Below the pieces are notes generated by a model that saw only the letters and a program-made list of their open reading frames with translations, searched no databases and was not told the origin of the DNA. DNA of 64,000 nt, from the NCBI GenBank assembly GCA_018061075.1, contig JAGOUW010000001.1:103105-167104 (forward strand), read 5' to 3'. The stretch is from Candidatus Levyibacteriota bacterium (GTDB taxonomy: Bacteria; Patescibacteriota; Microgenomatia; Levybacterales; UBA12049). This document shows positions 374-51,793 of the stretch, piece after piece; the first letter of the stretch is position 1; the number at the start of each line of letters is the position of its first letter. Position numbers and translations under genes: made by a program.

Positions 374-382
374 TGATAAAAT
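374..382 (+). promoter_or_regulatory. extended -10 (TGaTAAAAT), 6 nt before ATG 389
   Basis: Read directly. Confidence 0.6.
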
Positions 383-388
383 GATGAC

Positions 389-1345
389 ATGGAATTATTG
401 TTTGTTATCATGACCATTCTGGGTCTCTGTGTCTTTGAGGTTATTACTTCAATTGACAACGCAGTTATCAATGCAGAAGTTCTATCCGGAATGAGTAAAA
501 AGGCAAGGCGTTGGTTTTTGACCTATGGATTTTTCTTTGCAGTTTTTGTGGTTAGAGGACTTCTCCCGTTTTTAATAATCTGGGCAGCAACTCCAAGTCT
601 AGGCCCGATAGAAGTGCTTGGTGTTTCGATTAGCGGAAGTGAAGCAGCGAAAGAAGCAATTGAGCACACAGCGCCTCTTCTTCTGCTAGGTGGAGGAGTA
701 TTTTTGATCTTCTTGTTTTTCAACTGGTTATTTCTTGAGCCTAAGAATTTTGGACTTAGAGGAGAGAAATTTTTTCAAGGTCAAGGAGCATGGTTTTTTG
801 CAATTGTCTCAGTGCTATTAGCAGTAATTGTATATCTTGCTTTAAAAGTAGATGACATGTTGGCATTTTCTGCCGTTATTGGTTCTACTGCATTTTTCAT
901 AATTCACGGTTTTAGGCAGTTTGCTGAACAGCAGGAAGCAAAATTACTAGATAAGAAGAATAAGATGAGTGATGTTTCAAAAATTGCCTATCTTGAAGTC
1001 TTAGATACTACCTTCTCAATCGACGGTGTTGTGGGTGCATTTGCATTCACTTTTTCAGTTCCATTCATTTTAATTGGAAACGGAATCGGAGCGTTGATAC
1101 TCAGAAAATTAACTATTTCAAACATAGATAGGATTAAGCAGTATAAGTTCCTAAAAAATGGAGCAATGTATTCCATATTTTTCCTAGGAGCAATAATGTC
1201 TCTTCATGCATTTCATATTGAAGTGCCTCCATATGTTTCACCAATAATTACTTTTGGAACAGTTGGCTATTTCTTCTGGAAATCTAAAACAGACTTAAAG
1301 AAAATGGGAACTGATATCTCCGCTGCGGTAAGCTCCAAAAAATAA
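389..1345 (+). CDS. DUF475/TerC-like integral membrane protein
   Basis: Polytopic membrane protein with 'ITSIDNAVINAEVL' and 'TFSIDGVVGAFAF' motifs. TGaTAAAAT sits 6 nt upstream of the ATG. Confidence 0.6.
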   Translation: MELLFVIMTILGLCVFEVITSIDNAVINAEVLSGMSKKARRWFLTYGFFFAVFVVRGLLPFLIIWAATPSLGPIEVLGVSISGSEAAKEAIEHTAPLLLLGGGVFLIFLFFNWLFLEPKNFGLRGEKFFQGQGAWFFAIVSVLLAVIVYLALKVDDMLAFSAVIGSTAFFIIHGFRQFAEQQEAKLLDKKNKMSDVSKIAYLEVLDTTFSIDGVVGAFAFTFSVPFILIGNGIGALILRKLTISNIDRIKQYKFLKNGAMYSIFFLGAIMSLHAFHIEVPPYVSPIITFGTVGYFFWKSKTDLKKMGTDISAAVSSKK

Positions 1346-1346
1346 C

Positions 1347-3455
1347 ATGGATAAGGTTTATGACCACAAGAAAATTGAGGAAAAAATCTATAAAAAATGG
1401 GAAGAGACAAAATCCTTCTCTCCTGAAGTAAACCCCAACGGAAAACCTTTTACGATTATTCTTCCTCCCCCTAATGCAAATGCCCCTCTTCATTTTGGAC
1501 ATGCTATGTATGTGGTTGAAGATATCCTAATTAGATATCATAGAATGCTTGGTGACGCATCTCTGTGGCTTCCAGGCGCAGATCACGCAGGGTTTGAAAC
1601 CCAGTTTGTTTTTGAAAAGCAGCTTCAGAAAGAGGACAAATCTAGATTTGATTTTGATAGAGAAACTCTTTATAAAATGATTTGGGACTTTGTCCACTCA
1701 AATAGGGGAACCATGGAATCTCAGCTCAGGGCTTTAGGTTTTTCGCTAGACTGGTCAAGAATGAAATTTACCCTAGATCCAAAAATTGTTGAGATAGTGT
1801 ATGGAACATTTAAAAAACTTTATGATGATGATTTAGTTTATAGAGATTTAAAGCTTGTTAACTACTGCACAAAGGATGGCACCTCTTTTTCAGATCTTGA
1901 GGTAAAACATGTTGAGCAAATTGACCCCCTTTATTACATGAAGTATGGACCTTTTGTTTTAGCAACCGTTAGGCCTGAAACAAAATTTGGAGATACAGCC
2001 GTTGCAGTGCACCCAAATGATAAAAGATACAAAGATTATATTGGTATGGAAATTGAATTTGATGGGCTTATTGGTAAAGTAAAATTAAAAGTAGTAGGGG
2101 ATGAGGCAGTTGATCCAGAATTTGGAACTGGAGTTGTGAAGGTAACTCCAGCACACGATTTTACAGATTTTGAAATTGGGAAAAGACATAGATTAGAAAG
2201 TAAGCAGGTTATTGGATTTGACGGAAGATTGACAAAGCTTGCAGGAAAATATGCAGGACTTAAGGTAAAAGAAGCAAGGGAAATTGTTGTTAAGGATTTA
2301 CAGCAAAAAGGTTTAATAGAAAAAATTGATGAAAAATATTCACATACAATTTCTACCTGCTATAAGTGCAATCGTGTTTTAGAGCCTCTTCCGATGGAAC
2401 AGTGGTTTATCAGAGTAAAGCCACTAGTAGCTCCAAGTATAAAAGCACTATCAGAAAAGAAAATTAAAATTGTCCCACAGAGACTAGAGAAAACTATGAC
2501 TCAATGGTTTGAGAATTTCCATGATTGGAATATATCTCGCCAGATTGTTTGGGGGATCAGAATTCCTGCCTGGAGGTGTGAAGGTTGTAATGAATGGATT
2601 GTCACAGAAGGAAAAACTCCCGAAAAATGTACGAAGTGTAGTTCGAAAGTTCTAATTCAAGATACAGACACATTTGATACATGGTTTTCTTCAGGTCAGT
2701 GGCCTTTCGCTACTTTGAAAGCAGGGAATAAAGGAGACTTTGAAAAATTTTATCCAACTGCGGTAATGGAAACCGCTTATGACATTTTACCTTGGTGGGT
2801 CTGCAGGATGATTATGTTTGGGATTTATGCGAATGGGGAAGTGCCATTTAAAACTGTTTATTACCACGGACTTATAAGAGACGGAAAAGGACAAAAGATG
2901 AGTAAGAGCAAGGGAAACGTAATTAATCCAATCGAGATGTTGGAAAAGTACTCAGCTGATGCAGTTAGACTTGCGCTTGTTTTCGGGGCTGCTGCTGGGA
3001 ACGATCAGTCGCTCGCAGAAGACAAAATACGAGGAATGAGAAACTTTACCAATAAATTATGGAATATGGGGAGATTTATAGAAATGAATAATAAGAATTT
3101 TGATTTAAGTTTAATTAGCATTAGTGAATTAGGAGAAATTGCAAAAAATGAAAATGACAAGAAGATGATAAGTGGGGTAGGGAAGTTAGTTGAAAAAGTT
3201 ACAAAACATGTAGAAAAGTATGAGCTTAATCTTGCAGCAGAATCTTTGTATGAGTTCATTTGGCATGAGTTTGCAGATGGGTACATAGAGGATGTAAAAA
3301 ATAGAATTGACGAAGATTCATTTAAAATTTTAAATTCATTGTTTTTAATCCAGCTAAAGCTTCTACATCCCTTTATGCCATTTATTACCGAAGAGATTTT
3401 CGGGAAATTTACGGGAAATAATCTGATAACAAGTAAATGGCCGACAGTTAAATAA
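1347..3455 (+). CDS. valS: valine--tRNA ligase (short form, 702 aa)
   Basis: Class I aaRS signatures 'PPPNANAPLHFGHA' and 'KMSKSKGN'. ValRS-type 'RPETKFGDTAVAVHPNDKRY' is also present. Confidence 0.75.
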   Translation: MDKVYDHKKIEEKIYKKWEETKSFSPEVNPNGKPFTIILPPPNANAPLHFGHAMYVVEDILIRYHRMLGDASLWLPGADHAGFETQFVFEKQLQKEDKSRFDFDRETLYKMIWDFVHSNRGTMESQLRALGFSLDWSRMKFTLDPKIVEIVYGTFKKLYDDDLVYRDLKLVNYCTKDGTSFSDLEVKHVEQIDPLYYMKYGPFVLATVRPETKFGDTAVAVHPNDKRYKDYIGMEIEFDGLIGKVKLKVVGDEAVDPEFGTGVVKVTPAHDFTDFEIGKRHRLESKQVIGFDGRLTKLAGKYAGLKVKEAREIVVKDLQQKGLIEKIDEKYSHTISTCYKCNRVLEPLPMEQWFIRVKPLVAPSIKALSEKKIKIVPQRLEKTMTQWFENFHDWNISRQIVWGIRIPAWRCEGCNEWIVTEGKTPEKCTKCSSKVLIQDTDTFDTWFSSGQWPFATLKAGNKGDFEKFYPTAVMETAYDILPWWVCRMIMFGIYANGEVPFKTVYYHGLIRDGKGQKMSKSKGNVINPIEMLEKYSADAVRLALVFGAAAGNDQSLAEDKIRGMRNFTNKLWNMGRFIEMNNKNFDLSLISISELGEIAKNENDKKMISGVGKLVEKVTKHVEKYELNLAAESLYEFIWHEFADGYIEDVKNRIDEDSFKILNSLFLIQLKLLHPFMPFITEEIFGKFTGNNLITSKWPTVK

Positions 3456-3481
3456 GGATATTTGATTCTCCTAATTAGTCT

Positions 3482-3883: not shown

Positions 3884-4591
3884 TTACTCCTGAGGTTTTT
3901 CTTCTGTGTTTGTAGCTTCACTTCCTTCGCCGGATCCTTCAGATTCTCCGCCTTCAGCTGGAGTTTCACCCTCTGCAGATTCAGTAGCGGCAGCTTCAGC
4001 TGCAGCAGCTTCTTCAGCGATTTGTTCCTGAGTCTCTTTGCTTACGAGTTCTCCAATTTTTACAACAACAAGGTTTGGATCTGAAAGAACCTCAACGCCT
4101 TCTGGCTTATGAACCATTTCAACTGTGATTTGATCGTCGATATTCTTAAGAGCTGTAATATTTAGTTCAAATTTCTCAGGAAGCTCTGTAGGCAATGCTT
4201 CAACTTCGATTTCATTTGTAATTTTCTCGAGTAATCCTATCTTTTCGGTCACCGCTATTGGTTCGCCAGTTAGTTCAATTGGAATCATAGCTTTAACTTT
4301 TTCTTTAAGATTTACCTTAAAAAAGTCAGCATGAAGAGGCATGTTTTTGTAGTCTTTGTGAAGATTGTGGATTAAAACTGGAATTGTGTCTTTTCCTACC
4401 TCTAAATCAACAACTCCTGTTTCTCCAGCCTCTTCAAATACTTTAAGAAAGTCTGTCATTGGGAGCTGGAGGGATTGAGATTTTATGTCTTTACCGTAAA
4501 CGTTAGCTGGCAAAATACCCTCGCGACGTAGCTTTTTAATTTTCTTTCCAGTGATCTTTCGTGGTTCTGCTGTTAACTTAAACCTTTTCAT
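3884..4591 (-). CDS. rplY: 50S ribosomal protein bL25 (Ctc form) with acidic low-complexity tail
   Basis: N-terminus 'MKRFKLTAEPRKITGKKIKKLRREGILPANVYGK' is typical of L25/Ctc. TGaTAAAAT sits 6 nt upstream of the ATG. Confidence 0.85.
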   Translation of the reverse strand: MKRFKLTAEPRKITGKKIKKLRREGILPANVYGKDIKSQSLQLPMTDFLKVFEEAGETGVVDLEVGKDTIPVLIHNLHKDYKNMPLHADFFKVNLKEKVKAMIPIELTGEPIAVTEKIGLLEKITNEIEVEALPTELPEKFELNITALKNIDDQITVEMVHKPEGVEVLSDPNLVVVKIGELVSKETQEQIAEEAAAAEAAATESAEGETPAEGGESEGSGEGSEATNTEEKPQE

Positions 4592-4597
4592 TATGGT

Positions 4598-4606
4598 ATT
4601 TTATCA
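4598..4606 (-). promoter_or_regulatory. extended -10 (TGaTAAAAT), 6 nt before rplY ATG 4591
   Basis: Read directly. Confidence 0.6.
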
Positions 4607-7672: not shown

Positions 7673-9199
7673 TTATATATTATCAGTTTTTGGTCTATAT
7701 TGAAGAGCTTCTGCGATGTGATTCGGTTTTATTTTTATTTCTTTTTCAAGGTCTGCTATGGTTCTGGAAACTTTAAGAATCTTATTATAAGACCTAGCTG
7801 AAAGATTTAATTTATTTACAGCCATTTTTAAAATTTCCAAAGAGTCTTCTGAGAGTTCACAATATTTTTTAATCAATTTGCTGTTCATTTCTGAATTTGA
7901 AATAATCTTGTCTTTTTTAAATCTTTTCGTTTGAATATCGCGGGCCATTTGTACTGTTTTCCTTATCTCCCTAGATGACGGCCCGGTGTCTACTTTTTGT
8001 TCTGTTAACTTTTCAACCTTAACTGCAGGAACGTCTAAATGGACATCGATTCGGTCAAGCATAGGGCCAGATATTTTTTTTTGATATCTTAAAATTTCAG
8101 ATGTAGAGCATTTACATTCATGAGTAGAATCTCCAAGATATCCACAGGGGCAAGGATTCTGGGCAGCTACCATCATAAATTTAGCTGGAAAAGTGATTCT
8201 TCCTGAAGCTCTAGATATGGTTACAAAACCGTCTTCCATTGGCTGACGCAATGCTTCTAAAACGTGTCTGGGAAATTCTGGAAATTCATCCAAAAATAAA
8301 ACGCCACGATGCGCTAGGGAAATTTCTCCAGGTTTTGGAATATTACTTCCGCCAATTAATCCAATATGAGAGGTTGTATGATGAGGGGAGCGAAAAGGGC
8401 GTTTTATAACCAAAGATTCTTTGTCTAATAAGCCTGAAATGCTATAAATTTTTGTAATTTCAATTGCCTCGTCAAATGTGGGCTTTGGTAAGATCGAAGG
8501 CATTGTTCTTGCAAGTAAAGTTTTTCCTGCGCCCGGTGGGCCTTTTAATAAAATGTTGTGTCCACCAGCTGCTGAGATTTCCATGGCCCGTTTTGCTTGC
8601 TCTTGCCCTTTAATATCTTTCATGTCGAATTCAAAATCATCTTCTGATATTTGATCTATTAAAGTTGGCTTTTGTTTTTTAATCAAAATAACTCCAGTTA
8701 AATGGTTTAATAATTCATGTAAGGAATTAAGAGGAATTACTTCAAGGCCTTTTATGATTGCTGCTTCTTTTGCGTTGTCAAAGGGAAGAAAAAGTGCAGA
8801 ATATTTTTTCTCTCTTGTAAGAATTGCCTTAGGAAGAGCTCCTGAAGTATGTCTTAATTTTCCTTCAAGAGAAAGCTCTCCCATGAAAAGAAAATTAGAG
8901 ACATCAGTCTTGATTTGCTCACTTGCAAGTAAAATTCCAAGTGCGATAGGGAGGTCATAAGTGGGACCTTCTTTCGGAAGATCTGCGGGAGCAAGATTAA
9001 CGGTAATTCTTTTCGCAGGAAATTCAGCGCCAGTATTTTTTATTGCTGAACGCACTCTTTCCTTTGCTTCCTCGACTGCTTTGTCAGGTAAACCAACTAT
9101 TGTAAAAGAGGGGAGACCCTGAGAAGCAATATCCACCTCGACTTCAACAGGAACTGCATTTAGGCCAATTAATGCTGCGGAGTTAACCTTAGCAAGCAT
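7673..9199 (-). CDS. YifB/ComM family Mg-chelatase-like ATPase
   Basis: 'GPPGAGKT' Walker A, 'LFLDEFPEF' and a conserved Cys-rich 'NPCPCGYLG' segment. Confidence 0.85.
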   Translation of the reverse strand: MLAKVNSAALIGLNAVPVEVEVDIASQGLPSFTIVGLPDKAVEEAKERVRSAIKNTGAEFPAKRITVNLAPADLPKEGPTYDLPIALGILLASEQIKTDVSNFLFMGELSLEGKLRHTSGALPKAILTREKKYSALFLPFDNAKEAAIIKGLEVIPLNSLHELLNHLTGVILIKKQKPTLIDQISEDDFEFDMKDIKGQEQAKRAMEISAAGGHNILLKGPPGAGKTLLARTMPSILPKPTFDEAIEITKIYSISGLLDKESLVIKRPFRSPHHTTSHIGLIGGSNIPKPGEISLAHRGVLFLDEFPEFPRHVLEALRQPMEDGFVTISRASGRITFPAKFMMVAAQNPCPCGYLGDSTHECKCSTSEILRYQKKISGPMLDRIDVHLDVPAVKVEKLTEQKVDTGPSSREIRKTVQMARDIQTKRFKKDKIISNSEMNSKLIKKYCELSEDSLEILKMAVNKLNLSARSYNKILKVSRTIADLEKEIKIKPNHIAEALQYRPKTDNI

Positions 9200-9216
9200 A
9201 TTAATATAATAGCACT

Positions 9217-11861: not shown

Positions 11862-11870
11862 TGGTACAAT
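11862..11870 (+). promoter_or_regulatory. extended -10 (TGgTACAAT), 9 nt before dnaG ATG
   Basis: Read directly. Confidence 0.5.
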
Positions 11871-11879
11871 TGAAATCCT

Positions 11880-13628
11880 ATGGATCAAGCCTCACAAGTG
11901 AAGGAAAAAATCGACATAGTTTCACTTATTTCTGAATACCTTCCCCTTAAAAAAATGGGGAGAAATTTTACGACAGTATGTCCATTTCACAGCGAAAATT
12001 CTTCATCATTTGTTGTTAGTCCTGAAAGACAAATTTGGCATTGTTTTGGATGTGGAAAAGGAGGCGACGCATTTTCGTTTTTAATGGATTATGAAAATTT
12101 GGAGTTTGTAGAATCTCTTAGAATTCTTGCAAAAAAAGCAGGTGTTACCTTAAATATTACTTCAAATTCATTTGCAACGTCTAGAAAGGAGGCAATATAT
12201 TCTTTAAATAAAATTGCAGCAGAATATTATCATTTCGTATTAACAAAGCATCCGGTAGGGGAGAAAGCTCTTTTGTATTTAATTAAAAATAGAAATATAA
12301 ATGAAAAATTAATTAAAACATTTCAAATTGGATTTGCTCCTAGTAGGGGAGAGGACCTTTCTAAATATTTGCTTGATAAAAAAAAGTTTAAAAAAATGGA
12401 TTTGGTAGAGGCAGGACTTGGAATTCAAAAAGGGGAGAGGGTAATTGATTTTTTCAGAGGAAGAATTATTTTCCCCTTAATTGACCACAGGGGAAATATC
12501 TCTGGTTTTTCAGGAAGAAATATAACAGAAGCAGACTTTGGACCAAAATATATAAACACCAGAGACACTCTGGTTTATCACAAGGGAAGTATGTTTTTTG
12601 GGCTTAATCTTGCAAAAGACTCGATTAAAAAAGAACAATCGACAATTGTGATGGAGGGGGAGTTTGACGTAATAACTGCATTTAAAGAGGGAATTACAAA
12701 TGCAGTTGCTCTTAAGGGGACTGCGTTAACAGAAAATCAAGCAATACTTCTGTCTAGATTCGCTCCAAAGGTTTCACTTTGTCTTGATCAGGATAATGCT
12801 GGAATTGAAGCAATGAAGAGAAGTATTCCTGTACTAGAAAAAAGAGGATTATCAATTACTGTAATAATACCCGATGAAAAGGATCCAGACGAGGCTCTTA
12901 AAAGTAATCCGGTTGGTTTTAAAAAAGCTATAAAAAATGATAGGGAAATTTATGATTTCTTACTCGATAAATTTGTTTTGGAAAATGATTCTGATTCTGC
13001 GATTGGTAAAAAGAAAATTGGAGATGAGATGCTCCCATTGATTTCAAATATTCAAAATGAAATTATTAAAGAGCACTATTTAAAAAAATTAAGCGAAGCA
13101 ATTAGTACTTCTTATGATTCTCTTTTAAGGCAAATCGAAAATAAAACAACAGAAAAAGAGGAAAAGATAGCTCCAAAAATACAAAAACAAAACAGACATG
13201 AGCTTCTTGAGGAATATCTTTTAGGTCTTGTTATCCAAGGCATAGAACCAAAACAAATGCTAATTAAGGTACAAGATATTTTAAATAAATATGAGTTTTT
13301 TATTCCTTCTGTTGGAAAAATATTTGCCGAAATTTTAACAGTAGTAAATGCTAAAGATTTTGATTTGAAATCTGCGTCTAAGAATTTATCCTCAGAGCTC
13401 CTGCCGGTGTTTGATAAATGTTTCTTGATGCCTCTTCCGAAATTTGAGGATAATATAAAATATGAAGAGGAGATTATTCGAGTATCAAAAGATTTAAAAT
13501 TAATTCAACTTAAAGAAAAAATAAAACAAATTAGCCGTGATTTAAAGGGAAAAGAAGAAAATGAAGAAGAGATTGAAAAAATTAAAGAAGAAATTGCTAG
13601 CATAACTTCTCAAATTGTTTCTTCTTAG
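11880..13628 (+). CDS. dnaG: DNA primase
   Basis: Zinc ribbon 'CPFHSENSSSF...WHCFGCGKGGD' and TOPRIM 'VMEGEFDVI'. Confidence 0.9.
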   Translation: MDQASQVKEKIDIVSLISEYLPLKKMGRNFTTVCPFHSENSSSFVVSPERQIWHCFGCGKGGDAFSFLMDYENLEFVESLRILAKKAGVTLNITSNSFATSRKEAIYSLNKIAAEYYHFVLTKHPVGEKALLYLIKNRNINEKLIKTFQIGFAPSRGEDLSKYLLDKKKFKKMDLVEAGLGIQKGERVIDFFRGRIIFPLIDHRGNISGFSGRNITEADFGPKYINTRDTLVYHKGSMFFGLNLAKDSIKKEQSTIVMEGEFDVITAFKEGITNAVALKGTALTENQAILLSRFAPKVSLCLDQDNAGIEAMKRSIPVLEKRGLSITVIIPDEKDPDEALKSNPVGFKKAIKNDREIYDFLLDKFVLENDSDSAIGKKKIGDEMLPLISNIQNEIIKEHYLKKLSEAISTSYDSLLRQIENKTTEKEEKIAPKIQKQNRHELLEEYLLGLVIQGIEPKQMLIKVQDILNKYEFFIPSVGKIFAEILTVVNAKDFDLKSASKNLSSELLPVFDKCFLMPLPKFEDNIKYEEEIIRVSKDLKLIQLKEKIKQISRDLKGKEENEEEIEKIKEEIASITSQIVSS

Positions 13629-13649: not shown

Positions 13650-13658
13650 TGGTAGAAT
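13650..13658 (+). promoter_or_regulatory. extended -10 (TGgTAGAAT), 8 nt before rpoD ATG 13667
   Basis: Read directly. Confidence 0.6.
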
Positions 13659-13666
13659 ATAGTAGT

Positions 13667-14749
13667 ATGGCAAAAACCGCCCCAAACATCCTTGCTGATA
13701 TTGTTGATTCTGCAAAAAAACGCGGATATATAACGCAAGAAGAAATTCTTTCTATGTTTCCAAAACCGGAAGAACACATAGAGGACCTAGATACTCTTTA
13801 TGACAAATTACTAAAAGCTGATATTGATGTTTTTGAGTCAGTTGCGGAAGGCCAGGAGGGTGAAAAACCAATTGAAGATCTTGAAAAAGAGCTAGAGGCT
13901 TTAACTGTTTTAACAGAGGGAACAGTTAGTGATCCAGTCAGGATGTATTTAAAGGAAATTGGTAGAATTCCACTTTTAAATTTTGATCAGGAAATTGTTC
14001 TAGCTAAAAGAGTGGAGAAAGGGGACGAAGAAGCAAAAAAAATATTAGTTAATTCAAATCTTCGTCTTGTTGTTTCAATTGCAAAGAAATATGTTGGCCG
14101 CGGGCTTACGCTTCTTGATTTGATTCAAGAAGGAAATCAAGGTTTAATTCGCGCAGTAGAGAAGTATGACTGGAGAAGAGGGTTTAAGTTTTCAACATAT
14201 GCTACTTGGTGGATTCGTCAATCTATAACACGTGCGATCGCTGATCAGGCGCGCACTATTAGAATTCCTGTTCATATGGTAGAAAATATAAACAGATTCT
14301 TAAGAGCTTCTAGAAAATTAATGCAGGAATTAGGACGCGAACCAACCCCAGAAGAAGTTGCAAAAGTTCTAGATATTGACCCAGAGAAAGCACTTGAAAT
14401 TATAAAAATTTCCCAGGAGCCAGCAAGTCTTGAATCTCCAGTAAGTGATGAGGAGGATTCTCGTCTTGGAGATTTCATTCATGATTCAGCAGCACCAACT
14501 TTATTTGATTCAGCAAGTAGAGAGCTTTTAAAAGAACAGGTTGATCAAGTTTTAGGAACTTTATCAGACAGAGAAAGAAGAGTTCTTGAAGAAAGATTTG
14601 GACTTAAAGATGGTAGGCCAAAAACTCTTGAAGAAGTGGGAAAAATGTTTGCTGTAACTCGAGAAAGAATAAGACAAATTGAAGCTAAATCACTTAGAAA
14701 ATTAAGACATCCTTCCAGGGGAAATAAATTAAAAGACTACCTAGGTTAA
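13667..14749 (+). CDS. rpoD: RNA polymerase sigma factor RpoD (start revised from 13649)
   Basis: Region 2 '[34 protein letters not shown]' and region 4 '[19 protein letters not shown]'. The track's GTG (13649) lies inside TGgTAGAAT (13650..13658), and ATG 13667 is 8 nt after that -10. Confidence 0.9.
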
Positions 14750-36453: not shown

Positions 36454-36461
36454 AAGCCGCC

Positions 36462-38127: not shown

Positions 38128-38182
38128 GAATCAAGCATTTCAGATTTATAAATCTATGTCAAACTTGATGACGTTTTGGTGA

Positions 38183-38458
38183 TTAGATTTTTTGTCCGTC
38201 TACCCAAGGTCTTGAGCTTAATGTCCTTGCATCAAAAACATCTCCGCGTTGTAGTGGCGGGCGAGGAAAATATACTGGAATTAGGGGAGCCATCATAAAA
38301 TATGATCGAACTCTAGTGTCCATTAGATTTTTTCCTGTATCAACTATATATCTTTGAGATGATGGATCAGGATTTCTTAAGACAGCTGCTACTGTTCCTT
38401 CAACTTTTTTCCCAAGTATAAAATCCGACATTCTCCGGCCAAGTTCACCTTTTTGCAT
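38183..38458 (-). CDS. hypothetical protein (GC-rich orphan, 91 aa)
   Basis: TGaTATAAT (38473..38465) sits 6 nt upstream of the ATG. Composition differs from the neighbours. Confidence 0.5.
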   Translation of the reverse strand: MQKGELGRRMSDFILGKKVEGTVAAVLRNPDPSSQRYIVDTGKNLMDTRVRSYFMMAPLIPVYFPRPPLQRGDVFDARTLSSRPWVDGQKI

Positions 38459-38464
38459 TCGGAG

Positions 38465-38473
38465 ATTATATCA
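38465..38473 (-). promoter_or_regulatory. extended -10 (TGaTATAAT), 6 nt before ATG 38458
   Basis: Read directly. Confidence 0.6.
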
Positions 38474-38479
38474 CAGTGA

Positions 38480-39064
38480 CTAAGAGGTAAATCTTTTTCC
38501 AATCTTAGACCAGATAATTAAAGCGAGAAATGCGTTAATAATAAGTAGATAAATTGGAAAACTGTAAGTTGCGAAATTCCAATTATCGATAGTTAATAAA
38601 GTTATTATGGTTCCGATTGTAGTAAGGGCAAAGGCAATGTAGCTTTCTGTTTCAGGTTCTTTAATTGATTTAACAACTGTTGGAATTCCGGCTATAGCAT
38701 CTGCGATAATACTAAATAATATTGCTAGCACTCCGACTCCTGTAGCTAGCCAAAATATAACACCAAGTATTGAGAATAATCCACAAATAATATCAAACTT
38801 AGTTATTTTCCAGAATGCTTTTCTGTTTAGAAATGAAGTAAAGAATATTAGAAAAGGAATGAAGCCGACCATAAAGGTTAATAAAGATTGAATTCCCACG
38901 CCTTCTTTTATTTGAGCAAAAAAAGCTATCATGGGAATTGCTCCCCATAAGAACCAAGTAACTTTATTTGGTTTTACCTTTCCTTTCAGGGTTAAATATA
39001 AGTAGATTGCTCCGCCAATAGAACTTAGGATAATAGAAACATAAACAAAATTTTCATTTAACAT
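38480..39064 (-). CDS. hypothetical polytopic membrane protein
   Basis: Six predicted TM helices. No family was recognised. Confidence 0.45.
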   Translation of the reverse strand: MLNENFVYVSIILSSIGGAIYLYLTLKGKVKPNKVTWFLWGAIPMIAFFAQIKEGVGIQSLLTFMVGFIPFLIFFTSFLNRKAFWKITKFDIICGLFSILGVIFWLATGVGVLAILFSIIADAIAGIPTVVKSIKEPETESYIAFALTTIGTIITLLTIDNWNFATYSFPIYLLIINAFLALIIWSKIGKRFTS

Positions 39065-39089
39065 ACTAGGAAATTATAGCAGAAGAAGG

Positions 39090-39470
39090 TTATTTAGGGG
39101 ATTTCATAACTGAAATTATGTTTCCTGCGGGATCTTTAAACCATGCGATTTCCTGTCCCCATTCTCTGGAAATTCCTTTTTCATCAGTTTTAAATTCTTT
39201 ATATTGTTCAAAAGTTATGCCTTTGGAAATTAGATCGTCGACAGTTTTCTCGACGTTATCTACTGGAAAATTTAGAACTGTAAAGGTAGCGGGTTTATGA
39301 TTGTCTTTTGGATAGATCATGATTTCTCCGCCACTAGGAAATTTAATATTTAAAATTTCCATGTCGTCATATAACTTAATTTCTAATCCGAGAGTTTTTC
39401 CATAAAACTCTTTGGCTTTATTTAAATCATCAACGGAAAAACTTGAAAATGCGTGTGAATTTTTAAGCAT
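39090..39470 (-). CDS. VOC/glyoxalase-family protein
   Basis: '[13 protein letters not shown]' beta-alpha-beta-beta-beta start and '[11 protein letters not shown]' end. Confidence 0.65.
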
Positions 39471-39488
39471 ATTTTAATTATATCAAAG

Positions 39489-41346: not shown

Positions 41347-41383
41347 GTGGCAATTATATCAGAGATTAAAGTGTGATACAGTT

Positions 41384-41968
41384 ATGCCTATGTTTTTAAT
41401 TTCTAGTGATTATTTAGAGGTAAGAAAAGTTAAAGGAAAAGGCAGCGGAATTTTCGCTCTTAAAAATATTTCCAAGGGTTTAGTTATCGGAGATTATCTT
41501 GGGAAAGTATTGTATCCCGAAGAAGCATTAATCGACGAAGAGAATTTTTATCTAATGTATTATCACGACCGAGCAGTAATATCTCCAGATTTAAAAAAAG
41601 TTGGACCACATCTAATTAATCATTCATGTGTTCCAAATTCTTTTCTTTATGTTTATAAAGGTCATACTTTAGTTTTTGCTCTCAGAAAAATTCTAAAAGG
41701 TGAAGAGTTAACTATACCATACCTACTTCCACCTATTGACGAATATTGTAATCCTTGTCTTCATGTTTGTAGCTGCGGAAGTTTGAATTGTAAAAAAACT
41801 ATGCATATGTCAAGAGAAAAATATAATTATTGGCGAAAAATTACAGACAGGCAATCCAAGGAAACAAAAAAAGAAAGAATCAGGTATGGAAAAAATCTTG
41901 CGATTCTAACTAGCTATCCGAAATTTATTCTCGAGGAGTATATAAATGAAATTAAAGAAATATTATAA
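41384..41968 (+). CDS. SET-domain protein (putative lysine methyltransferase); start revised from 41345
   Basis: 'GSGIFALKNI', 'NHSCVPNS', 'GEELTIPY' and the Cys cluster 'CNPCLHVCSCGSLNC'. The track start would overlap the divergent gene's start. Confidence 0.75.
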   Translation: MPMFLISSDYLEVRKVKGKGSGIFALKNISKGLVIGDYLGKVLYPEEALIDEENFYLMYYHDRAVISPDLKKVGPHLINHSCVPNSFLYVYKGHTLVFALRKILKGEELTIPYLLPPIDEYCNPCLHVCSCGSLNCKKTMHMSREKYNYWRKITDRQSKETKKERIRYGKNLAILTSYPKFILEEYINEIKEIL

Positions 41969-42193
41969 TTCGTATCCCCCAGATGGAGGATCATCTGATT
42001 CGGTTACTGCAATATATATTTCATCAATGTCAATTTGTTCACCATCATCAAATTGAAATTCTTTATGATCCTCGTTATATTCCACCAAGTGTTTTCTTAT
42101 TCCGTGATATAGAGCTTTTGATGCTTCGTGTTTGCTGTTATGGAAAGTATAAAATATCCGCGTACAATACGAGCAAGAATGTGAGTAATACAT
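41963..42193 (-). CDS. small zinc-finger-like protein with acidic tail (76 aa)
   Basis: TGaTATAAT (42208..42200) sits 6 nt upstream of the ATG. 'CSYCTRIFYTFHNSKH' follows a C-x2-C-x7-H-x3-H pattern. Confidence 0.55.
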   Translation of the reverse strand: MYYSHSCSYCTRIFYTFHNSKHEASKALYHGIRKHLVEYNEDHKEFQFDDGEQIDIDEIYIAVTESDDPPSGGYEL

Positions 42194-42199
42194 TTTGTG

Positions 42200-42208
42200 A
42201 TTATATCA
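42200..42208 (-). promoter_or_regulatory. extended -10 (TGaTATAAT), 6 nt before ATG 42193
   Basis: Read directly. Confidence 0.6.
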
Positions 42209-42212: not shown

Positions 42213-42668
42213 TTATTTATTTAAAAGAACGATTGATAGATTAAGAATAGAGGCAAAGCTTACCCAGAAAAGATATGGATATAAAATGTAGGAAGCAGTT
42301 TTATTAACTTTTTTAAAAGATTTTATAGTTTGAAAAATACTGATCCAGAGAAGAATTATAATTATAAAAGCAAATAGCGGATTTTTTAATCCAAAAAATA
42401 TAATTGACCAAACAGTGTTAAGAGAAAGTTGAATCCAGAACCATTTTAAATCGGTTTTTTTCTTACCCCAAACTAAAAATAATGACACTCCCATCAAAAA
42501 ATATAGAGTTGTCCACACTGGTCCAAATACAAATGATGGAGGATTGAAAAATGGTTTTTCTAAAGTTAAGTACCAGGTGTTAACGGAATTAAAAGTAAAG
42601 ATGGATCCGATTAGTCCTGCAGCCTGACATAAAAAAATAAATCCAACAAGTCTTAATAAATCTTTCAC
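42213..42668 (-). CDS. tspO: TspO/MBR family tryptophan-rich sensory protein
   Basis: 'FFNPPSFVFGPVWTTLYFLMG' and 'YPYLFWVSFASILN'. Promoter layout is TTGACA-17-GATTAT-6-GTG. Confidence 0.85.
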   Translation of the reverse strand: MKDLLRLVGFIFLCQAAGLIGSIFTFNSVNTWYLTLEKPFFNPPSFVFGPVWTTLYFLMGVSLFLVWGKKKTDLKWFWIQLSLNTVWSIIFFGLKNPLFAFIIIILLWISIFQTIKSFKKVNKTASYILYPYLFWVSFASILNLSIVLLNK

Positions 42669-42674
42669 TATATT

Positions 42675-42703
42675 ATAATCTCAGGTTGAGGATTTGATGT
42701 CAA
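42675..42703 (-). promoter_or_regulatory. TTGACA-17-GATTAT, 6 nt before tspO GTG 42668
   Basis: Read directly. Confidence 0.55.
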
Positions 42704-43021: not shown

Positions 43022-43783
43022 TTACATAACGCTATTCACAGATGAGTTGTTAATCTTATTTATTAAAAGTGGATTTTTATGATGATAAATTTCGGTAACT
43101 ATACTGACCAGATAATTTCCTAATATTTCTGTATTATCAATAATTTCATCTGGATCTTTATTTATTAGGTGATTTGCCCATGCATCTGATCTCCATTTTT
43201 CAATAACCATATGAAATTCATTAATTATAAAATCTTTAAAAATTAGACTTCCAAAACCTAGTAAATCATGTTTTTTAATCAGTATTTTCATTACATCTGG
43301 TATTACTTCCATGAGAATGTCATTTACTAAAAAATAATCTTTTTCATTTGAATATTTTAATTTAGAAATCGAAGAATATAAGTCAGCATTGATATGGGCA
43401 TTTATCCCAAGTAAAATTTGTAAAAATGGAATTCCATTCGGATCAGAGGTATATTTAAAATAAGACTGCCACGGCTTGGTTAAATCACCTTTTTCTATAA
43501 ATTTTAGAACCGGGCCGAAATATAAAGAGGCAAAATATATATCAAGTTTTTCGACTGATTTAAAATCTTTGAAATAAGATTTTTTTAAATTATATTTTTC
43601 TGCGACGGCAATAGTAACTAAAAGATAAGTTTCGAGAAACGGAGCAAGGGATGATTTTTCTTTATTATCCTTAAAATATTGTAATAAAACTTCCATCCTT
43701 CCGATAATTGTATATATCGTTTCTTCTTTGGGATTGTTTAATACTAATAGTTTTTTTAAATCAAATTTATCTTTTGTAGGCAT
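43022..43783 (-). CDS. hypothetical protein (DUF5995-like)
   Basis: 'LLGINAHINADL' resembles DUF5995. This is recalled from memory and weak. Confidence 0.35.
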   Translation of the reverse strand: MPTKDKFDLKKLLVLNNPKEETIYTIIGRMEVLLQYFKDNKEKSSLAPFLETYLLVTIAVAEKYNLKKSYFKDFKSVEKLDIYFASLYFGPVLKFIEKGDLTKPWQSYFKYTSDPNGIPFLQILLGINAHINADLYSSISKLKYSNEKDYFLVNDILMEVIPDVMKILIKKHDLLGFGSLIFKDFIINEFHMVIEKWRSDAWANHLINKDPDEIIDNTEILGNYLVSIVTEIYHHKNPLLINKINNSSVNSVM

Positions 43784-43804
43784 TAACTTAATTGTAGCAG
43801 ATGA

Positions 43805-45371: not shown

Positions 45372-45668
45372 CTATATTTTTTTCTCAATTATTTTATAAA
45401 AAGTAAGTGCGAAGTAGCTGAGAATTAGTACAAATAAAAATTCCTCTATTGGCATAAAACCTATCTTAGGGCCTAATAGAAATTCTTTACTAAAAGTCCA
45501 ATGTCCGCGTGCGATTGCAATCTGATCCCAAATGGTTGCAAGGAAAACATTAATGGAATTAAAAATTATAAAATGCTTTGGAGATTTATAAATTTTAATT
45601 TTAAAATAAAAATGAAGTAAAACTGTTACCAAAAAAACTAAGATTAAGATTATTAAATATTCCGGCAT
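45372..45668 (-). CDS. lycopene cyclase domain-containing small membrane protein
   Basis: 98 aa with three TM helices and 'MPIEEFLFVLIL' (PxEE motif). TGcTATACT sits 6 nt upstream of the ATG. Confidence 0.55.
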   Translation of the reverse strand: MPEYLIILILVFLVTVLLHFYFKIKIYKSPKHFIIFNSINVFLATIWDQIAIARGHWTFSKEFLLGPKIGFMPIEEFLFVLILSYFALTFYKIIEKKI

Positions 45669-45674
45669 GAATTT

Positions 45675-45683
45675 AGTATAGCA
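45675..45683 (-). promoter_or_regulatory. extended -10 (TGcTATACT), 6 nt before ATG 45668
   Basis: Read directly. Confidence 0.6.
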
Positions 45684-46227: not shown

Positions 46228-46256
46228 TTGACAAACGATATAGCTTAGATTAATAT
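46228..46256 (+). promoter_or_regulatory. TTGACA-17-TAATAT, 6 nt before ATG 46263
   Basis: Read directly. Confidence 0.65.
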
Positions 46257-46262
46257 TGGCGT

Positions 46263-46739
46263 ATGAAAAGAAGTTCCACGTTGTTTCTTAGATTTGCCAT
46301 ATGTCTTCTTGGATTGAGCGCAGTTATAGGTATGATTTGGTTTCCTCAAGCTGAAGGAAGAGCTACTAATCTAAACCTAATTAATATTTATGCAGATCCG
46401 TTTATTATCTACACATATATTGCGTCCACGCCATTTTTTATTGGTTTATATCAAGCATTTAAATTATTAAATTTAATTGATGCTGATAAAGCTTTTTCCC
46501 AATCAGCTGTTAATACGCTTAGAAATATGAAGTATGCTTCGCTTGTCCTTATCGGTTTTATTTTATTAGCAATTCTTTTTATTCGTTTCTTCGTTAACGG
46601 CGATGATCCAGCAGGTCCCACAATGCTTGGAATTATTGCATCGTTTGCAGTTGCTGTAATTGCTACCGCTGCTACTGTTTTTCAAAAACTTTTCCAGAAT
46701 GCAGTAAATATTAAATCTGAAAACGATTTAACAGTATAA
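46263..46739 (+). CDS. DUF2975-like membrane protein
   Basis: Four TM helices. It lies upstream of a YozG-type HTH, the usual pairing. Promoter layout is TTGACA-17-TAATAT-6-ATG. Confidence 0.55.
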   Translation: MKRSSTLFLRFAICLLGLSAVIGMIWFPQAEGRATNLNLINIYADPFIIYTYIASTPFFIGLYQAFKLLNLIDADKAFSQSAVNTLRNMKYASLVLIGFILLAILFIRFFVNGDDPAGPTMLGIIASFAVAVIATAATVFQKLFQNAVNIKSENDLTV

Positions 46740-47343: not shown

Positions 47344-47361
47344 AACTGCTATAATTTCTCC

Positions 47362-47739
47362 ATGATTAAGCAAAAAGTTTTTATTCCCGCATCTCCAAAT
47401 GAAGTTTACGATGCATTGATGGATCAGAAGAAGCACTTTGAATTTACTGGAGCTAAAGCAAGAATAGAAAATAAAAAAGGCGGTAAATTTTCCGTTTGGG
47501 ATGGATATGCTACAGGGGAAAATTTAATCTTAGAACCTGACAAGCAAATAGTGCAATCCTGGCGAGCAAGTGACTGGCCAGTTGGAAAAATTTCAAAAGT
47601 TACTTATCATTTATCCCCAAAAAACAATGGATGTGAAATTGAATTTGAACATATAGATGTGCCAAGAGACTTTGAAGAAGATATTAAGAATGGTTGGGAA
47701 GAATATTATTGGGAACCTCTAAAAGCATATTTTAGCTAA
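47362..47739 (+). CDS. SRPBCC/AHSA1-family protein
   Basis: 'IPASPNEVYDALMD...GGKFSVWDGYATGENL...IVQSWR'. Confidence 0.65.
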   Translation: MIKQKVFIPASPNEVYDALMDQKKHFEFTGAKARIENKKGGKFSVWDGYATGENLILEPDKQIVQSWRASDWPVGKISKVTYHLSPKNNGCEIEFEHIDVPRDFEEDIKNGWEEYYWEPLKAYFS

Positions 47740-47860: not shown

Positions 47861-48361
47861 TTATTCGCCGGCTTTTCGGATTGCTTCTAGATCAAGTTTT
47901 TTCATTGGCATAAATACAGCAGTTACTGCCTCCGTTTTTTCAGGGTCTCTCATCATTTCATCCAAGATTCTAGGAACTACTTGCCATGTTACACCAAATT
48001 TATCTGTACACCATCCGCATTGCTCGGCTTCTGGAACTGCTGAAAGGGCCTCCCAGAAGTAGTCAATTTCTTCTTGTGTTTCACATTCTATAATGTAGGA
48101 CGTAGCACCATTAAGCTTAAACTGTTCAACTGGGCCTCCGTTAAGAAACATGAAGCTTATTCCGTCAATTTCGCATTCAGCTGTCATTACAGATCCTTCA
48201 GGTATTCCCGAAACTTCCTCGCTTGCTTTTGGGGCTTTTGTGATGTCTCCAATTTTTGCAGAATGTTCTCCAGGTGCTGAATTAAAAGTATCTATATAGT
48301 AATTTGCTGCCTCTTCTCCGTCATTTTTGGCAAACCAGATGCATGTAATTAGTTTACTCAT
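47861..48361 (-). CDS. PhnB-like VOC protein (3-demethylubiquinone-9 3-methyltransferase-domain family)
   Basis: 'ITCIWFAKNDGEEAANYYIDTF' and 'CGWCTDKFGVTWQV'. TGtTAGAAT sits 7 nt upstream of the ATG. Confidence 0.7.
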   Translation of the reverse strand: MSKLITCIWFAKNDGEEAANYYIDTFNSAPGEHSAKIGDITKAPKASEEVSGIPEGSVMTAECEIDGISFMFLNGGPVEQFKLNGATSYIIECETQEEIDYFWEALSAVPEAEQCGWCTDKFGVTWQVVPRILDEMMRDPEKTEAVTAVFMPMKKLDLEAIRKAGE

Positions 48362-48368
48362 TTAATTT

Positions 48369-48377
48369 ATTCTAACA
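48369..48377 (-). promoter_or_regulatory. extended -10 (TGtTAGAAT), 7 nt before ATG 48361
   Basis: Read directly. Confidence 0.6.
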
Positions 48378-50688: not shown

Positions 50689-50717
50689 TTGACAATTCGG
50701 GCTAAACGAGCGAATAT
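50689..50717 (+). promoter_or_regulatory. TTGACA-17-GAATAT, 6 nt before ATG 50724
   Basis: Read directly. Confidence 0.6.
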
Positions 50718-50723
50718 TAATTT

Positions 50724-51272
50724 ATGCCAAGTCCTGATACGGCTCCCCAAGTTGAGCATCCCGCTCTTTCTCCAAAAAGAGAGAATATGACTCGTGAAGA
50801 CAGGATAAAGCATAATATTGCACGGCAATTTGCGCTGGGTCCACTTGGAGACCCAACTGTTACTGGGTTGAAGTTAAGGCGCGATCCGTATAGCAATGAA
50901 ATAGGTAATAATATTCCTATGAGTGCGAGTATAGCTGAGTCTACTGATCCTTATAAAACATGGGATACTCAAGTTCTGGATCCACGTGGGGTATTTGCAA
51001 GTCCACAAGAGTTTGCTCTACTGGTTAGGCAATATCGATTAGAATTGACCCAAGATCCCGTAGCTGCAAGAAGAATTGCTATGGAAGAGGAAGAAATAGT
51101 TCTTGGACAGCAAAGGCAAGAAGAAATTTGGACTATGGAAATTGCCGCTCGTGATCGAAAGCTTGCTGATGAACGCAATCGAACACTTGCAGCGCTAGAT
51201 GCCAGAGATGAATCTAGGCCACCTCAGGATGTTTTTGTAGCGGAAGGTTTTGACGATCAGAGAGCTGCTTAA
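50724..51272 (+). CDS. hypothetical protein (GC-rich orphan, charged coiled-coil-like C-terminus)
   Basis: Own TTGACA-17-GAATAT-6-ATG promoter. 182 aa. No motif was recognised. Confidence 0.55.
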   Translation: MPSPDTAPQVEHPALSPKRENMTREDRIKHNIARQFALGPLGDPTVTGLKLRRDPYSNEIGNNIPMSASIAESTDPYKTWDTQVLDPRGVFASPQEFALLVRQYRLELTQDPVAARRIAMEEEEIVLGQQRQEEIWTMEIAARDRKLADERNRTLAALDARDESRPPQDVFVAEGFDDQRAA

Positions 51273-51276
51273 TTCC

Positions 51277-51305
51277 TTGACATTTTTTAATGAGTTTTCT
51301 ATTAT
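51277..51305 (+). promoter_or_regulatory. TTGACA-17-TATTAT, 8 nt before sodN ATG 51314
   Basis: Read directly. Confidence 0.65.
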
Positions 51306-51313
51306 CATTCCAC

Positions 51314-51793
51314 ATGAAGCTTAGTTTTATATTTGATTTACTCCCTCAGAATGTTGCATTTGCACACTGTGATATTCCATGCGGAATCTATGATCCACAT
51401 CAGGCGCAGGTCGCCGTACATACTATTATAAGAATGACTGAGCTTTTAGGTCTTATAAAAAGAGACGACGAATTAAAAGCAGAGCATGATGTAAGTAGGG
51501 TTACTCATGTAAAAGAAGAGCATTCAAATATTTTAGAGCATGAGCTTGGAACTTTAGAAAAAGATTATTTTAAGGAAGAGCATTATTCTGAATATAAAGA
51601 ATTAAAAAGTTTATTTGAAATAGCTTCTAGGTTGGGAGCAAAAACAAGACAGGGAATAGATATGGAATCAGGAAAAGATCTTTTAGAAACTGTAATGCAA
51701 ATATCAGAAGTATTCTTTAAATCAAAAGGACTTGAGTCACATAGAGTCAAAGCACCATATCCTACTGACCTAGAAATTGTGGTACAAAGTTAA
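51314..51793 (+). CDS. sodN: nickel superoxide dismutase precursor (start revised from 51290)
   Basis: Ni-hook 'HCDIPCGIYDP' follows a 17-aa leader (MKLSFIFDLLPQNVAFA). TTGACA-17-TATTAT lies 8 nt before ATG 51314. The track's ATG lies inside the promoter spacer. Confidence 0.9.
   Translation: MKLSFIFDLLPQNVAFAHCDIPCGIYDPHQAQVAVHTIIRMTELLGLIKRDDELKAEHDVSRVTHVKEEHSNILEHELGTLEKDYFKEEHYSEYKELKSLFEIASRLGAKTRQGIDMESGKDLLETVMQISEVFFKSKGLESHRVKAPYPTDLEIVVQS

Follow-up and report, generated by a model that had tools for sequence, protein, structure and literature searches.

The window and its gene content

The stretch of DNA analyzed here (the window) comprises 64,000 nucleotides (nt) of contig JAGOUW010000001.1, positions 103,105 to 167,104, from a Candidatus Levyibacteriota bacterium, and the element under study is a -10-type box, TANNNT or its extended form TGnTANNNT, that recurs a few nucleotides before the start codons of its genes. 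The window has a GC content of 33.6% and its genes are tightly packed, with ~3 kb of intergenic DNA per 64 kb. According to Pfam annotation they are ordinary housekeeping and envelope genes, among them valS, ruvCAB, purA/purB/purH, dnaG-rpoD, bL25, def, truB, msrA, sodN/sodX, uvrD, tpiA, and many glycosyltransferases.

GenBank names the proteins of the window as those of 'Candidatus Levybacteria bacterium' (locus tags KBD51_), and its RpoD is 99% identical to proteins in Candidatus Levybacteria/Levyibacteriota metagenome-assembled genomes (MAGs), which belong to the Microgenomates group of the Candidate Phyla Radiation (CPR, or Patescibacteria). One relative provides a syntenic locus, designated L081, with ~85% protein identity. 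Many of the closest genomes (L001-L005 and others) were deposited as 'uncultured Gammaproteobacteria bacterium'; RpoD identity and the neighbouring records clearly show them to be Levybacteria, and these public taxonomy labels are therefore wrong.

A -10 box lies at a set distance before many start codons

As a naive start set we took the longest-open-reading-frame (longest-ORF) starts of 73 genes, chosen blind to any motif. The background at each position was estimated from intergenic ATG/GTG codons not used as starts, and internal ATG codons served as additional controls. With these starts, TANNNT separated from the start codon by 6 nt (spacer 6) was found at 18/73 genes against ~2.8 expected (background 3.9%; binomial p = 3e-10). 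At the same spacer, a match of at least 5/6 to TATAAT occurred at 14/73 genes (background 1.0%; p = 3e-14), and the extended form TGnTANNNT at 11/73 against ~0.24 expected (background 0.33%; p = 1e-15). A profile aligned on the starts of 47 genes of the window shows the -10 enrichment that the first-pass annotation of this DNA had predicted (T-12, A-11, A-8, T-7).

The same distance emerged when no starts were assumed. Of 163 TGNTANNNT sites, 16 are followed by ATG/GTG at spacer 6, whereas other offsets average 3.2 (p = 3e-7). TTGACA occurs 19 times in the window, and in five cases ATG/GTG follows at a distance of exactly 29 nt (p = 2e-4), with sodN at 31 nt; thus 6/19 sit 29 or 31 nt before a start codon, each with nAnnnT at the -10 position. 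The loose TANNNT motif gave no peak in the start-agnostic test: with 3329 sites on both strands, one per 38 nt, it is too frequent in DNA of 33.6% GC to be informative alone.

That null result, the frequency of the motif, and a generic promoter scan without enrichment (detailed below) are what one might cite for chance combined with annotation bias, that is, an AT-rich composition in which starts were picked beside TA-rich intergenic DNA. We find this explanation scarcely credible: the spacer-6 peak appears with motif-blind starts whichever set of ATG controls, intergenic or internal, it is measured against, both TGNTANNNT and TTGACA reach significance when no starts are assumed, and the layout is conserved across relatives. 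The box-before-start pattern is real and far beyond chance.

The first-pass annotation had cited 21 start codons as examples. All are present, each opening an ORF of 61-430 amino acids (aa), and TANNNT lies at the spacer it gave for 17 of them, the exceptions being 27684, 20399, 42668, and 50724. At 27684 the box can be taken as TAAATT with a spacer of 6 nt or as TGtTTAAAT with one of 7 nt. The other three boxes (CATAAT at 20399, GATTAT at 42668, and GAATAT at 50724) keep A2 and T6, and each stands exactly 17 nt after a perfect TTGACA. The cited sites are thus there, but the list was incomplete, and we added 9199(-), 31863(-), 38127(-), 39064(-), 39470(-), 41346(-), 41390(+), 43783(-), and 47362(+). 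Also beyond that list are 11880(+), 29209(-), and 49113(+), with spacers of 9-10 nt, and a possible further site at 4660(+), where the box is ambiguous (spacer 8 or 10). The sites are given below by coordinates of the element, strand, downstream gene, box, spacer, and start codon.

374..391 (+): TerC/DUF475 gene (389-1345); TGaTAAAAT, 6 nt, ATG; valS coupled downstream
4589..4606 (-): ribosomal protein bL25 (3884-4591); TGaTAAAAT, 6 nt, ATG; divergent from ruvC
9197..9214 (-): Mg-chelatase/ComM-like gene (7673-9199); TGcTATTAT, 6 nt, ATG; promoter occupies the whole 17-nt gap
11862..11882 (+): dnaG (11880-13628); TGgTACAAT, 9 nt, ATG; leader probably 2-3 nt
13650..13669 (+): rpoD (13667-14749); TGgTAGAAT, 8 nt, ATG
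20397..20434 (-): 61-aa ORF (20214-20399); TTGACA, 17 nt, CATAAT, 6 nt, ATG
20437..20454 (+): VIT1-family gene (20452-20952); TGaTAGAAT, 6 nt, ATG; back to back with the promoter at 20397..20434
23254..23271 (-): hexapeptide transferase operon (22651-23256); TGtTATAAT, 6 nt, ATG
23282..23299 (+): msrA (23297-23842); TGtTATAAT, 6 nt, ATG; 40 nt to the divergent start at 23256
24740..24754 (-): gene 23843-24742; TATAAT, 6 nt, ATG
27672..27686 (+): beta-lactamase-family gene (27684-28634); GTG start; box kept in L081
29207..29228 (-): peptide deformylase (28631-29209); TGaTATAAT, 10 nt, ATG; spacer 7 nt in L081
31861..31880 (-): YceG/MltG gene (30895-31863); TGgTATAAT, 8 nt, ATG; 25 nt identical in L081
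33052..33069 (-): PIG-V-type mannosyltransferase (start 33054); TGtTATACT, 6 nt, ATG
33089..33106 (+): lineage-specific 95-aa ORF (33104-33391); TGgTATAAT, 6 nt, GTG
35433..35447 (-): MFS transporter (34143-35435); TATAAT, 6 nt, GTG; in L081 TACAAT, 8 nt, TTG
36451..36470 (-): fabD-like acyltransferase (35539-36453); TGcTATAAT, 8 nt, ATG; upstream gap 21 nt
38125..38162 (-): gene 36475-38127; TTGACA, 17 nt, AATGCT, 6 nt, ATG
38456..38473 (-): gene 38183-38458; TGaTATAAT, 6 nt, ATG; 21-nt gap
39062..39081 (-): gene 38480-39064; TGcTATAAT, 8 nt, ATG; 25-nt gap
39468..39485 (-): glyoxalase-family gene (39090-39470); TGaTATAAT, 6 nt, ATG; 18-nt gap, so that TGn abuts the upstream stop codon
41344..41361 (-): phosphoribosyltransferase (40723-41346); TGaTATAAT, 6 nt, ATG
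41374..41392 (+): SET-domain gene (start 41390); TGaTACAGT, 7 nt, ATG
42191..42208 (-): 76-aa ORF (41963-42193); TGaTATAAT, 6 nt, ATG; in the GenBank annotation
42666..42703 (-): TspO (42213-42668); TTGACA, 17 nt, GATTAT, 6 nt, GTG; assignment of the box ambiguous, with a second candidate TATAAT at spacer 3
43781..43799 (-): DUF5995 gene (43022-43783); TGcTACAAT, 7 nt, ATG; 21-nt gap
45666..45683 (-): lycopene-cyclase-domain protein (45372-45668); TGcTATACT, 6 nt, ATG
46228..46265 (+): DUF2975 gene (46263-46739); TTGACA, 17 nt, TAATAT, 6 nt, ATG; in L081 TTGACA, 17 nt, TAGAAT, 7 nt, ATG
47347..47364 (+): AHSA1-family gene (47362-47739); TGcTATAAT, 6 nt, ATG
48359..48377 (-): gene 47861-48361; TGtTAGAAT, 7 nt, ATG
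50689..50726 (+): gene 50724-51272; TTGACA, 17 nt, GAATAT, 6 nt, ATG
51277..51316 (+): sodN (51314-51793); TTGACA, 17 nt, TATTAT, 8 nt, ATG

Promoter architecture and the sigma factor

A frequency matrix aligned on start codons only reads T-15, G-14, n, T-12, A-11, W, A, A-8, T-7, with T-15 in 26/47 and G-14 in 20/47 genes. At position -1, G is found in one of the 47 genes and a pyrimidine in 33, which is the Y(-1)R(+1) signature seen at transcription start sites (TSSs). The boxes had been described in the first pass as often preceded by TGn or by TTGACA with a 17-nt spacer, and we recovered both as distinct sigma-70 promoter classes: an extended -10 (TGnTAtaAT) with a poor -35, and a perfect TTGACA followed after 17 nt by a weak -10. 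The TGn sites match the -35 consensus TTGACA at no more than 3/6 positions. None of the six sites with a perfect TTGACA at 17 nt has TGn, and their -10 boxes are weaker. Each element makes up for weakness in the other, the textbook behaviour of sigma-70 promoters.

The RpoD of the window can be aligned end to end with Bacillus subtilis SigA (E = 5e-127). Alignment to SigA structures shows that it keeps YATWWIRQ of region 2.4, the RIPVHMVE segment, and RERIRQ of region 4.2. YATWWIRQ reads the -10 and RERIRQ the -35, and the His and Glu of RIPVHMVE (E. coli H455 and E458; region 3.0) contact the TG of the extended -10.

An 18-nt string reported earlier as shared by two of the promoters (33052-33069 and 45666-45683) is present, with 17/18 positions identical. 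Pairs of promoters share a mean of 10.9/18 identities, several reach 15/18, and the flanks of the two strings are unrelated; we therefore count the match as at best marginal, barely beyond the promoter consensus (rough estimate ~0.07 over all pairs). We considered a regulatory site or a duplication as its source and rejected both, the flanks and the coding regions being unrelated.

The box marks free genes and is nearly absent from coupled ones

Using curated starts, we divided the 72 genes with a known upstream neighbour into coupled genes (same strand, gap of at most 12 nt; n=24) and free genes (n=48). Any promoter signature 6-8 nt before ATG/GTG was present at 31/48 free genes versus 3/24 coupled ones (Fisher p = 4e-5), and 36/48 free genes have a signature within 6-10 nt of the start. 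The start codons of the 31 signature sites are ATG in 27 cases and GTG in four. The extended form TGnTANNNT at 6-8 nt is found at 20/47 free genes and at 0/24 coupled ones (p = 5e-5).

The arrangement of the genes follows the same division. Same-strand gaps are bimodal: 24 measure at most 5 nt (often ATGA or TAATG overlaps), none 6-12 nt, and ten 13-30 nt. The cluster at 16-30 nt leaves just enough room for TGn, the -10 box, and the spacer; many neighbouring genes therefore seem to be transcribed from a promoter of their own that touches or runs into the end of the gene before it (9199, 36453, 38458, 39064, 39470, 42193, 43783). Divergent pairs with back-to-back promoters have 40-68 nt between their start codons (4591/4660, 20399/20452, 23256/23297, 33054/33104, 41346/41390, 45668/45729). 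Intrinsic terminator-like hairpins were not enriched in a scan of the window (8 found, 11.8 expected).

A more compact arrangement is found at 55425-55434, where the uvrD-like gene (-) and tpiA (+) diverge with 8 nt between their start codons, so that any promoter of either must sit inside the coding sequence of the other. A candidate for such a promoter is TGTGATACAAT, 22 nt upstream of the uvrD ATG.

Shine-Dalgarno sites are depleted

The absence of Shine-Dalgarno (SD) sites noted in the first pass was confirmed. SD-like 4-mers precede 5.5% of starts compared with 15% of internal ATG/GTG controls, and predicted duplexes of -5 kcal/mol or stronger with the anti-SD are found at 8% of starts versus 17% of controls. 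A convincing SD was seen in only 2/73 genes, purB (9217-10560) and dsbB (19740-20168). Upstream of the coupled genes the sequence is A-rich and G-poor, and their stop and start codons overlap or abut, which implies termination-reinitiation coupling.

No 16S rRNA 3' end, which carries the anti-SD, was found in the window or in the related loci retrieved. The anti-SD motif has been reported as less often detected only in a Parcubacteria subgroup (PMC9297842). Because of this, and because some Levybacteria rpoD leaders end in GGAGG, SD pairing is probably still possible but rarely used.

These rpoD leaders belong to a subset of Levybacteria loci (L013, L018-L021, L024, L027, L028, L033, L035) in which rpoD is not leaderless (upstream region ~2930-3000). 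There, TGnTAnnAT is followed by a leader of 45-50 nt with a conserved-looking hairpin and GGA/GGAGG before the rpoD ATG, so that SD-like sites have not vanished from the phylum. This leader may be regulatory.

A genome that is essentially SD-free, with A-rich sequence also upstream of its coupled genes, resembles the SD-poor Bacteroidota and Cyanobacteria (group B of GeneMarkS-2), in which SD sites are few or missing and internal starts follow A-rich sequence. The TAtaAT-like motif could accordingly be imagined as an SD-independent translation signal on leadered mRNAs and not as a promoter. We regard this as very unlikely. The group B mRNAs are leadered and their motif precedes all genes, operon-internal ones included (PMC6028130), whereas TGnTANNNT here is confined to free genes (the 20/47 versus 0/24 given above), as would suit a promoter of first or independent genes. 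Moreover, the motif matches the extended -10 consensus in full, TG included, and other sites carry a perfect TTGACA instead, always at 17 nt; a pyrimidine at -1 and a purine at +1 follow the motif, and the residues of the sigma factor that would read it are conserved.

The layout is conserved in relatives

Most orthologous starts in L081 have retained all three parts of the layout (-10 box, spacer, and start codon), while the DNA further upstream has diverged. Indels between the two loci leave the spacer at 6-8 nt (e.g. at 29209, 39470, 46263, and 41346). Among rpoD orthologues across Levybacteria, 50/79 have TANNNT 5-10 nt before the start, 31 of these with TG.

We then examined 74 other Levybacteria loci (456 kb) with the rpoD start masked, counting only boxes followed by an ORF of at least 80 aa. 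TATAAT was followed by an ORF at spacer 6 in 24 cases against a background of 0.85 (p = 1e-26) and at spacers 7/8/9 in 5/10/4, counts that are non-independent and inflated by orthology and synteny. The corresponding counts for TGNTANNNT at spacers 6/7/8/9 were 37/13/17/20 against a background of 3.8. The enrichment is present in every bin of RpoD identity, down to 76-79%; two more distant Microgenomates loci are too small for a count of this kind.

The spread of spacers bears on a further explanation, namely that these are real promoters whose TSS lies a few bases upstream, giving 'near-leaderless' leaders of 1-5 nt on which initiation is perhaps mechanistically distinct from that on 5'-AUG mRNAs. 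Spacers of 7-8 nt are found in 8/31 signature sites, five more sites have 9-10 nt, and orthologous spacers drift between 6 and 10 nt, all of which such leaders would accommodate. Against this stand the sharp mode at spacer 6, shared by 23/36 signature sites and evident in the related loci (24 versus 5, 10, and 4), the fact that at spacer 6 the first base of the start codon (A or G) becomes +1, and the practice of TSS-mapping studies, which class 5' untranslated regions (5' UTRs) of up to 5 nt as leaderless (PMC3898074). Overall, we judge this explanation improbable.

One upstream region behaves differently in L081. The 45 nt upstream of purH (start 29288; 29243-29290, +) are identical at 41/45 positions between the window and L081, with no clear box at 6-8 nt, unlike other upstream regions, which diverge beyond the -10 box. 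This segment may be a regulatory element or a short leader.

Start codon placement and small genes

The start codons beside the boxes are correctly placed, as Pfam domains, homologue lengths, orthologue starts, and GenBank starts agree. In the 18 longest-ORF cases there is no canonical start (ATG/GTG/TTG) further upstream within the ORF. Pfam domains begin at residues 1-13 (bL25, RuvC, MsrA, MFS, FabD-like, TspO, DUF2177, GGACT, AHSA1, and others), which argues against true starts further downstream.

Three starts had been moved in the first pass from the longest ORF to the promoter-proximal codon, and all three shifts are supported. For rpoD (13649 to 13667), the ATG is the first in-frame start available in L004, L005, and many other orthologues; the GTG of the naive set (13649) lies inside the promoter, as had been noted, and overlaps the TG of the box. 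For the PIG-V-like gene (33291 to 33054), the 120 listed homologues are 351-404 aa long, save one of 269 aa, and none covers more than 85% of the long form (465 aa), in keeping with the 386-aa protein from 33054. For sodN (51290 to 51314), the long form typically exceeds its homologues by 5-10 residues at the N-terminus, which is consistent with the shift but weaker; here, too, the naive ATG falls inside the promoter, between the -35 and -10 elements, and the short form has a 17-residue propeptide before HCDIPCGIY. GenBank already has the short RpoD (360 aa), the NiSOD of 159 aa, the 95-, 76-, and 61-aa ORFs, and the GTG start of TspO, and these 'relocations' are therefore relative to the raw ORF track only.

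The suggestion that the layout could serve as a signature for finding genes is plausible: it recovers the 61-, 76-, and 95-aa ORFs also called by GenBank. For the SET-domain gene (+, 41345-41968), divergent from the phosphoribosyltransferase gene, TGATACAGT and 7 nt point to a start at 41390 and not at the longest-ORF position 41345; the protein collection searched contains neither form of the protein (192 or 207 aa). An unannotated Cys-rich ORF of 49 aa (15625-15774, -) has a zinc-ribbon-like CxxC...CxxC...CxxC pattern and follows TGGTATAAT, 8 nt, and ATG. The ORF shares 100 nt with the 3' end of the yfhO-like gene, its stop lies 1 nt before the ATG at 15623, and its exact sequence is absent from the protein collection searched.

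The GC-richer genes share the layout, as had been claimed: the gene at 50724 and sodN belong to the TTGACA class, and the 95-aa ORF at 33104 has the box given above. The segment 33104-33391 (+) has 42-47% GC within a context of 30% GC and reads open on both strands. It is a lineage-specific coding ORF of 95 aa, whose protein is found only in the window genome and one close relative (79% identity); it overlaps truB (33388) by ATGA, and 35 of the 58 substitutions relative to L081 fall at codon position 3. A non-coding RNA at 33104-33390, transcribed from the 33089 promoter, was considered and rejected, with no Rfam hit and fold z-scores of -0.36 and -0.19.

A different junction is seen at the tRNA-Asn(GTT) gene (48932-49005, -), where the discriminator base G48934 is followed by C48933 and then by ATG 48932 of a 143-aa ORF (48501-48932). 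Processing of the tRNA 3' end would leave a single leader nucleotide on the mRNA, a situation that recalls tRNA punctuation in mitochondria and hints that RNA processing might also create leaderless mRNAs. The ORF was an orphan in the homologue search, with one weak homologue only, and therefore may not be a real gene.

Leaderless initiation as the best reading

With the last T of the -10 at -7 from the A or G of the start codon, the sites show the canonical distance from -10 to TSS, and transcription should therefore begin at the start codon itself. The first-pass annotation had read the layout as leaderless, and every prediction of that interpretation that could be tested at the sequence level held: a start-aligned extended -10, restriction to free genes, compensation between promoter elements, and conservation. 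From the observed motif, its position, the promoter classes, the restriction to non-coupled genes, the conservation, the lack of SD sites, and the sigma factor residues, we infer the 5' ends and the mode of translation as follows.

A housekeeping sigma-70-type holoenzyme would bind either an extended -10 promoter (TGnTAtaAT, no usable -35) or one in which TTGACA stands 17 nt before a weak -10. Because the -10 hexamer ends 6 nt (less often 7-8) before the start, transcription would begin on the A or G of ATG/GTG or 1-2 nt earlier, and the 5'-terminal AUG or GUG would be decoded without SD pairing. By analogy with other bacteria, this initiation may be 70S- or IF2-dependent. Operon-internal genes would rely on stop/start coupling (overlaps or gaps of at most 5 nt, A-rich upstream sequence, no SD), and many adjacent same-strand genes would instead use a promoter of their own squeezed into a gap of 16-30 nt.

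We hold with good confidence that default leaderless transcription and translation, together with stop/start coupling within operons, is the best reading of these data, and about two thirds of the independently transcribed genes most likely have an mRNA that begins at the start codon. Several points weigh against it. The TSSs are placed by the -10-to-TSS distance rules of E. coli and Mycobacterium (PMC3898074, PMC6028130), and sites with a spacer of 8-10 nt, including those of rpoD and sodN, may have leaders of 1-4 nt. About one third of the free genes have no signature at 6-8 nt, with boxes 9-22 nt upstream (27175, 45729, 55425) or none, and some box assignments are ambiguous (42668, 4660, 39064). 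A generic two-hexamer -35/-10 scan gave no enrichment (79 promoter-like sites, 83 expected), so it is where the boxes lie, and not how many there are, that carries the evidence. Among the relatives, beyond the non-independence of the related-locus counts, one Daviesbacteria locus shows a weak signal only.

A broader proposal, which we offer tentatively and would not yet lean on, is that in Levybacteria, and possibly in much of Microgenomates/CPR, leaderless initiation serves nearly all transcription units by default, those of housekeeping and ribosomal-protein genes among them, and that SD pairing has been effectively abandoned. In this proposal, with the same reserve, nearly every independent gene would have an extended -10 in a gap of 16-30 nt or in the end of the upstream gene. 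Equally tentative is its last part, in which the remaining genes would be served by stop/start re-initiation, with intrinsic terminators not evident.

Comparison with known systems and implications

The closest counterpart is group C of GeneMarkS-2, defined by a Pribnow box 6-8 nt from first-in-operon starts and comprising 1028/4769 bacterial genomes, mainly Actinobacteria and Deinococcus-Thermus (PMC6028130). TSS mapping verified this layout in Mycobacterium tuberculosis, whose -10 motif is TANNNT; of its genes with a primary TSS, 26% are leaderless (PMC3898074). The window shares with group C (M. tuberculosis, Streptomyces, Corynebacterium, Deinococcus-Thermus) the Pribnow/TANNNT box 6-8 nt before first-in-operon starts (PMC6028130, PMC3898074), the use of both ATG and GTG starts, closely set divergent promoters, and a signal that helps to correct starts. 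It differs in its taxon (CPR/Patescibacteria, 34% GC) and in its consensus, a strong extended -10 TGnTATAAT instead of a bare TANNNT. Approximately 65% of its free genes carry the signature, compared with 25-50% of operons in group C, and core genes are included (rpoD, bL25, def, ruvC, and dnaG), whereas no ribosomal protein gene of M. tuberculosis is leaderless. The SD-type sites that group C keeps at operon-internal and leadered genes are missing here, SD-like cores being depleted.

The promoters themselves resemble the extended -10 sigma-70/SigA promoters of E. coli and low-GC Gram-positives, in which TG one base upstream of TATAAT offsets a missing -35, and the RpoD of the window is most similar to B. 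subtilis SigA, with the His and Glu of region 3.0 kept. Such promoters normally precede a 5' UTR with an SD, whereas in the window the start codon would stand at +1. Haloarchaea and Sulfolobus (archaeal group D) are similar in that most transcription units are leaderless and SD sites are rare even at internal genes; their promoter, however, is a TATA box with a B recognition element (BRE) ~26 nt upstream, used by TATA-binding protein (TBP) and transcription factor B (TFB), and that of the window is a sigma-70 -10 box.

A full-text search of the literature available for the analysis found no paper tying leaderless genes to CPR, Patescibacteria, Saccharibacteria, or Parcubacteria; a TSS data set reportedly exists for the saccharibacterium TM7x. 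Known already are the leaderless mechanism in other bacteria and the correct starts in the public annotation. New are the taxon (CPR), the extent, with housekeeping genes included, and the near absence of SD sites.

In practical terms, the layout is a reliable rule for start placement and for finding small genes in Levybacteria MAGs, and it argues against SD-based start models for these genomes. It also offers a native promoter/start module (TGnTATAAT, 6 nt, ATG) for expression constructs in CPR. Default leaderless, SD-free initiation in a CPR lineage is plausible, on evidence that comes from Levybacteria. If it is true, a large uncultured radiation with reduced ribosomes joins the lineages that depend on leaderless, SD-independent initiation, core genes included, which bears on whether leaderless initiation is ancestral or was repeatedly derived under genome streamlining. 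Levybacteria would then be a bacterial lineage with archaeal- or mitochondrial-like initiation, perhaps tied to the reduced ribosome.

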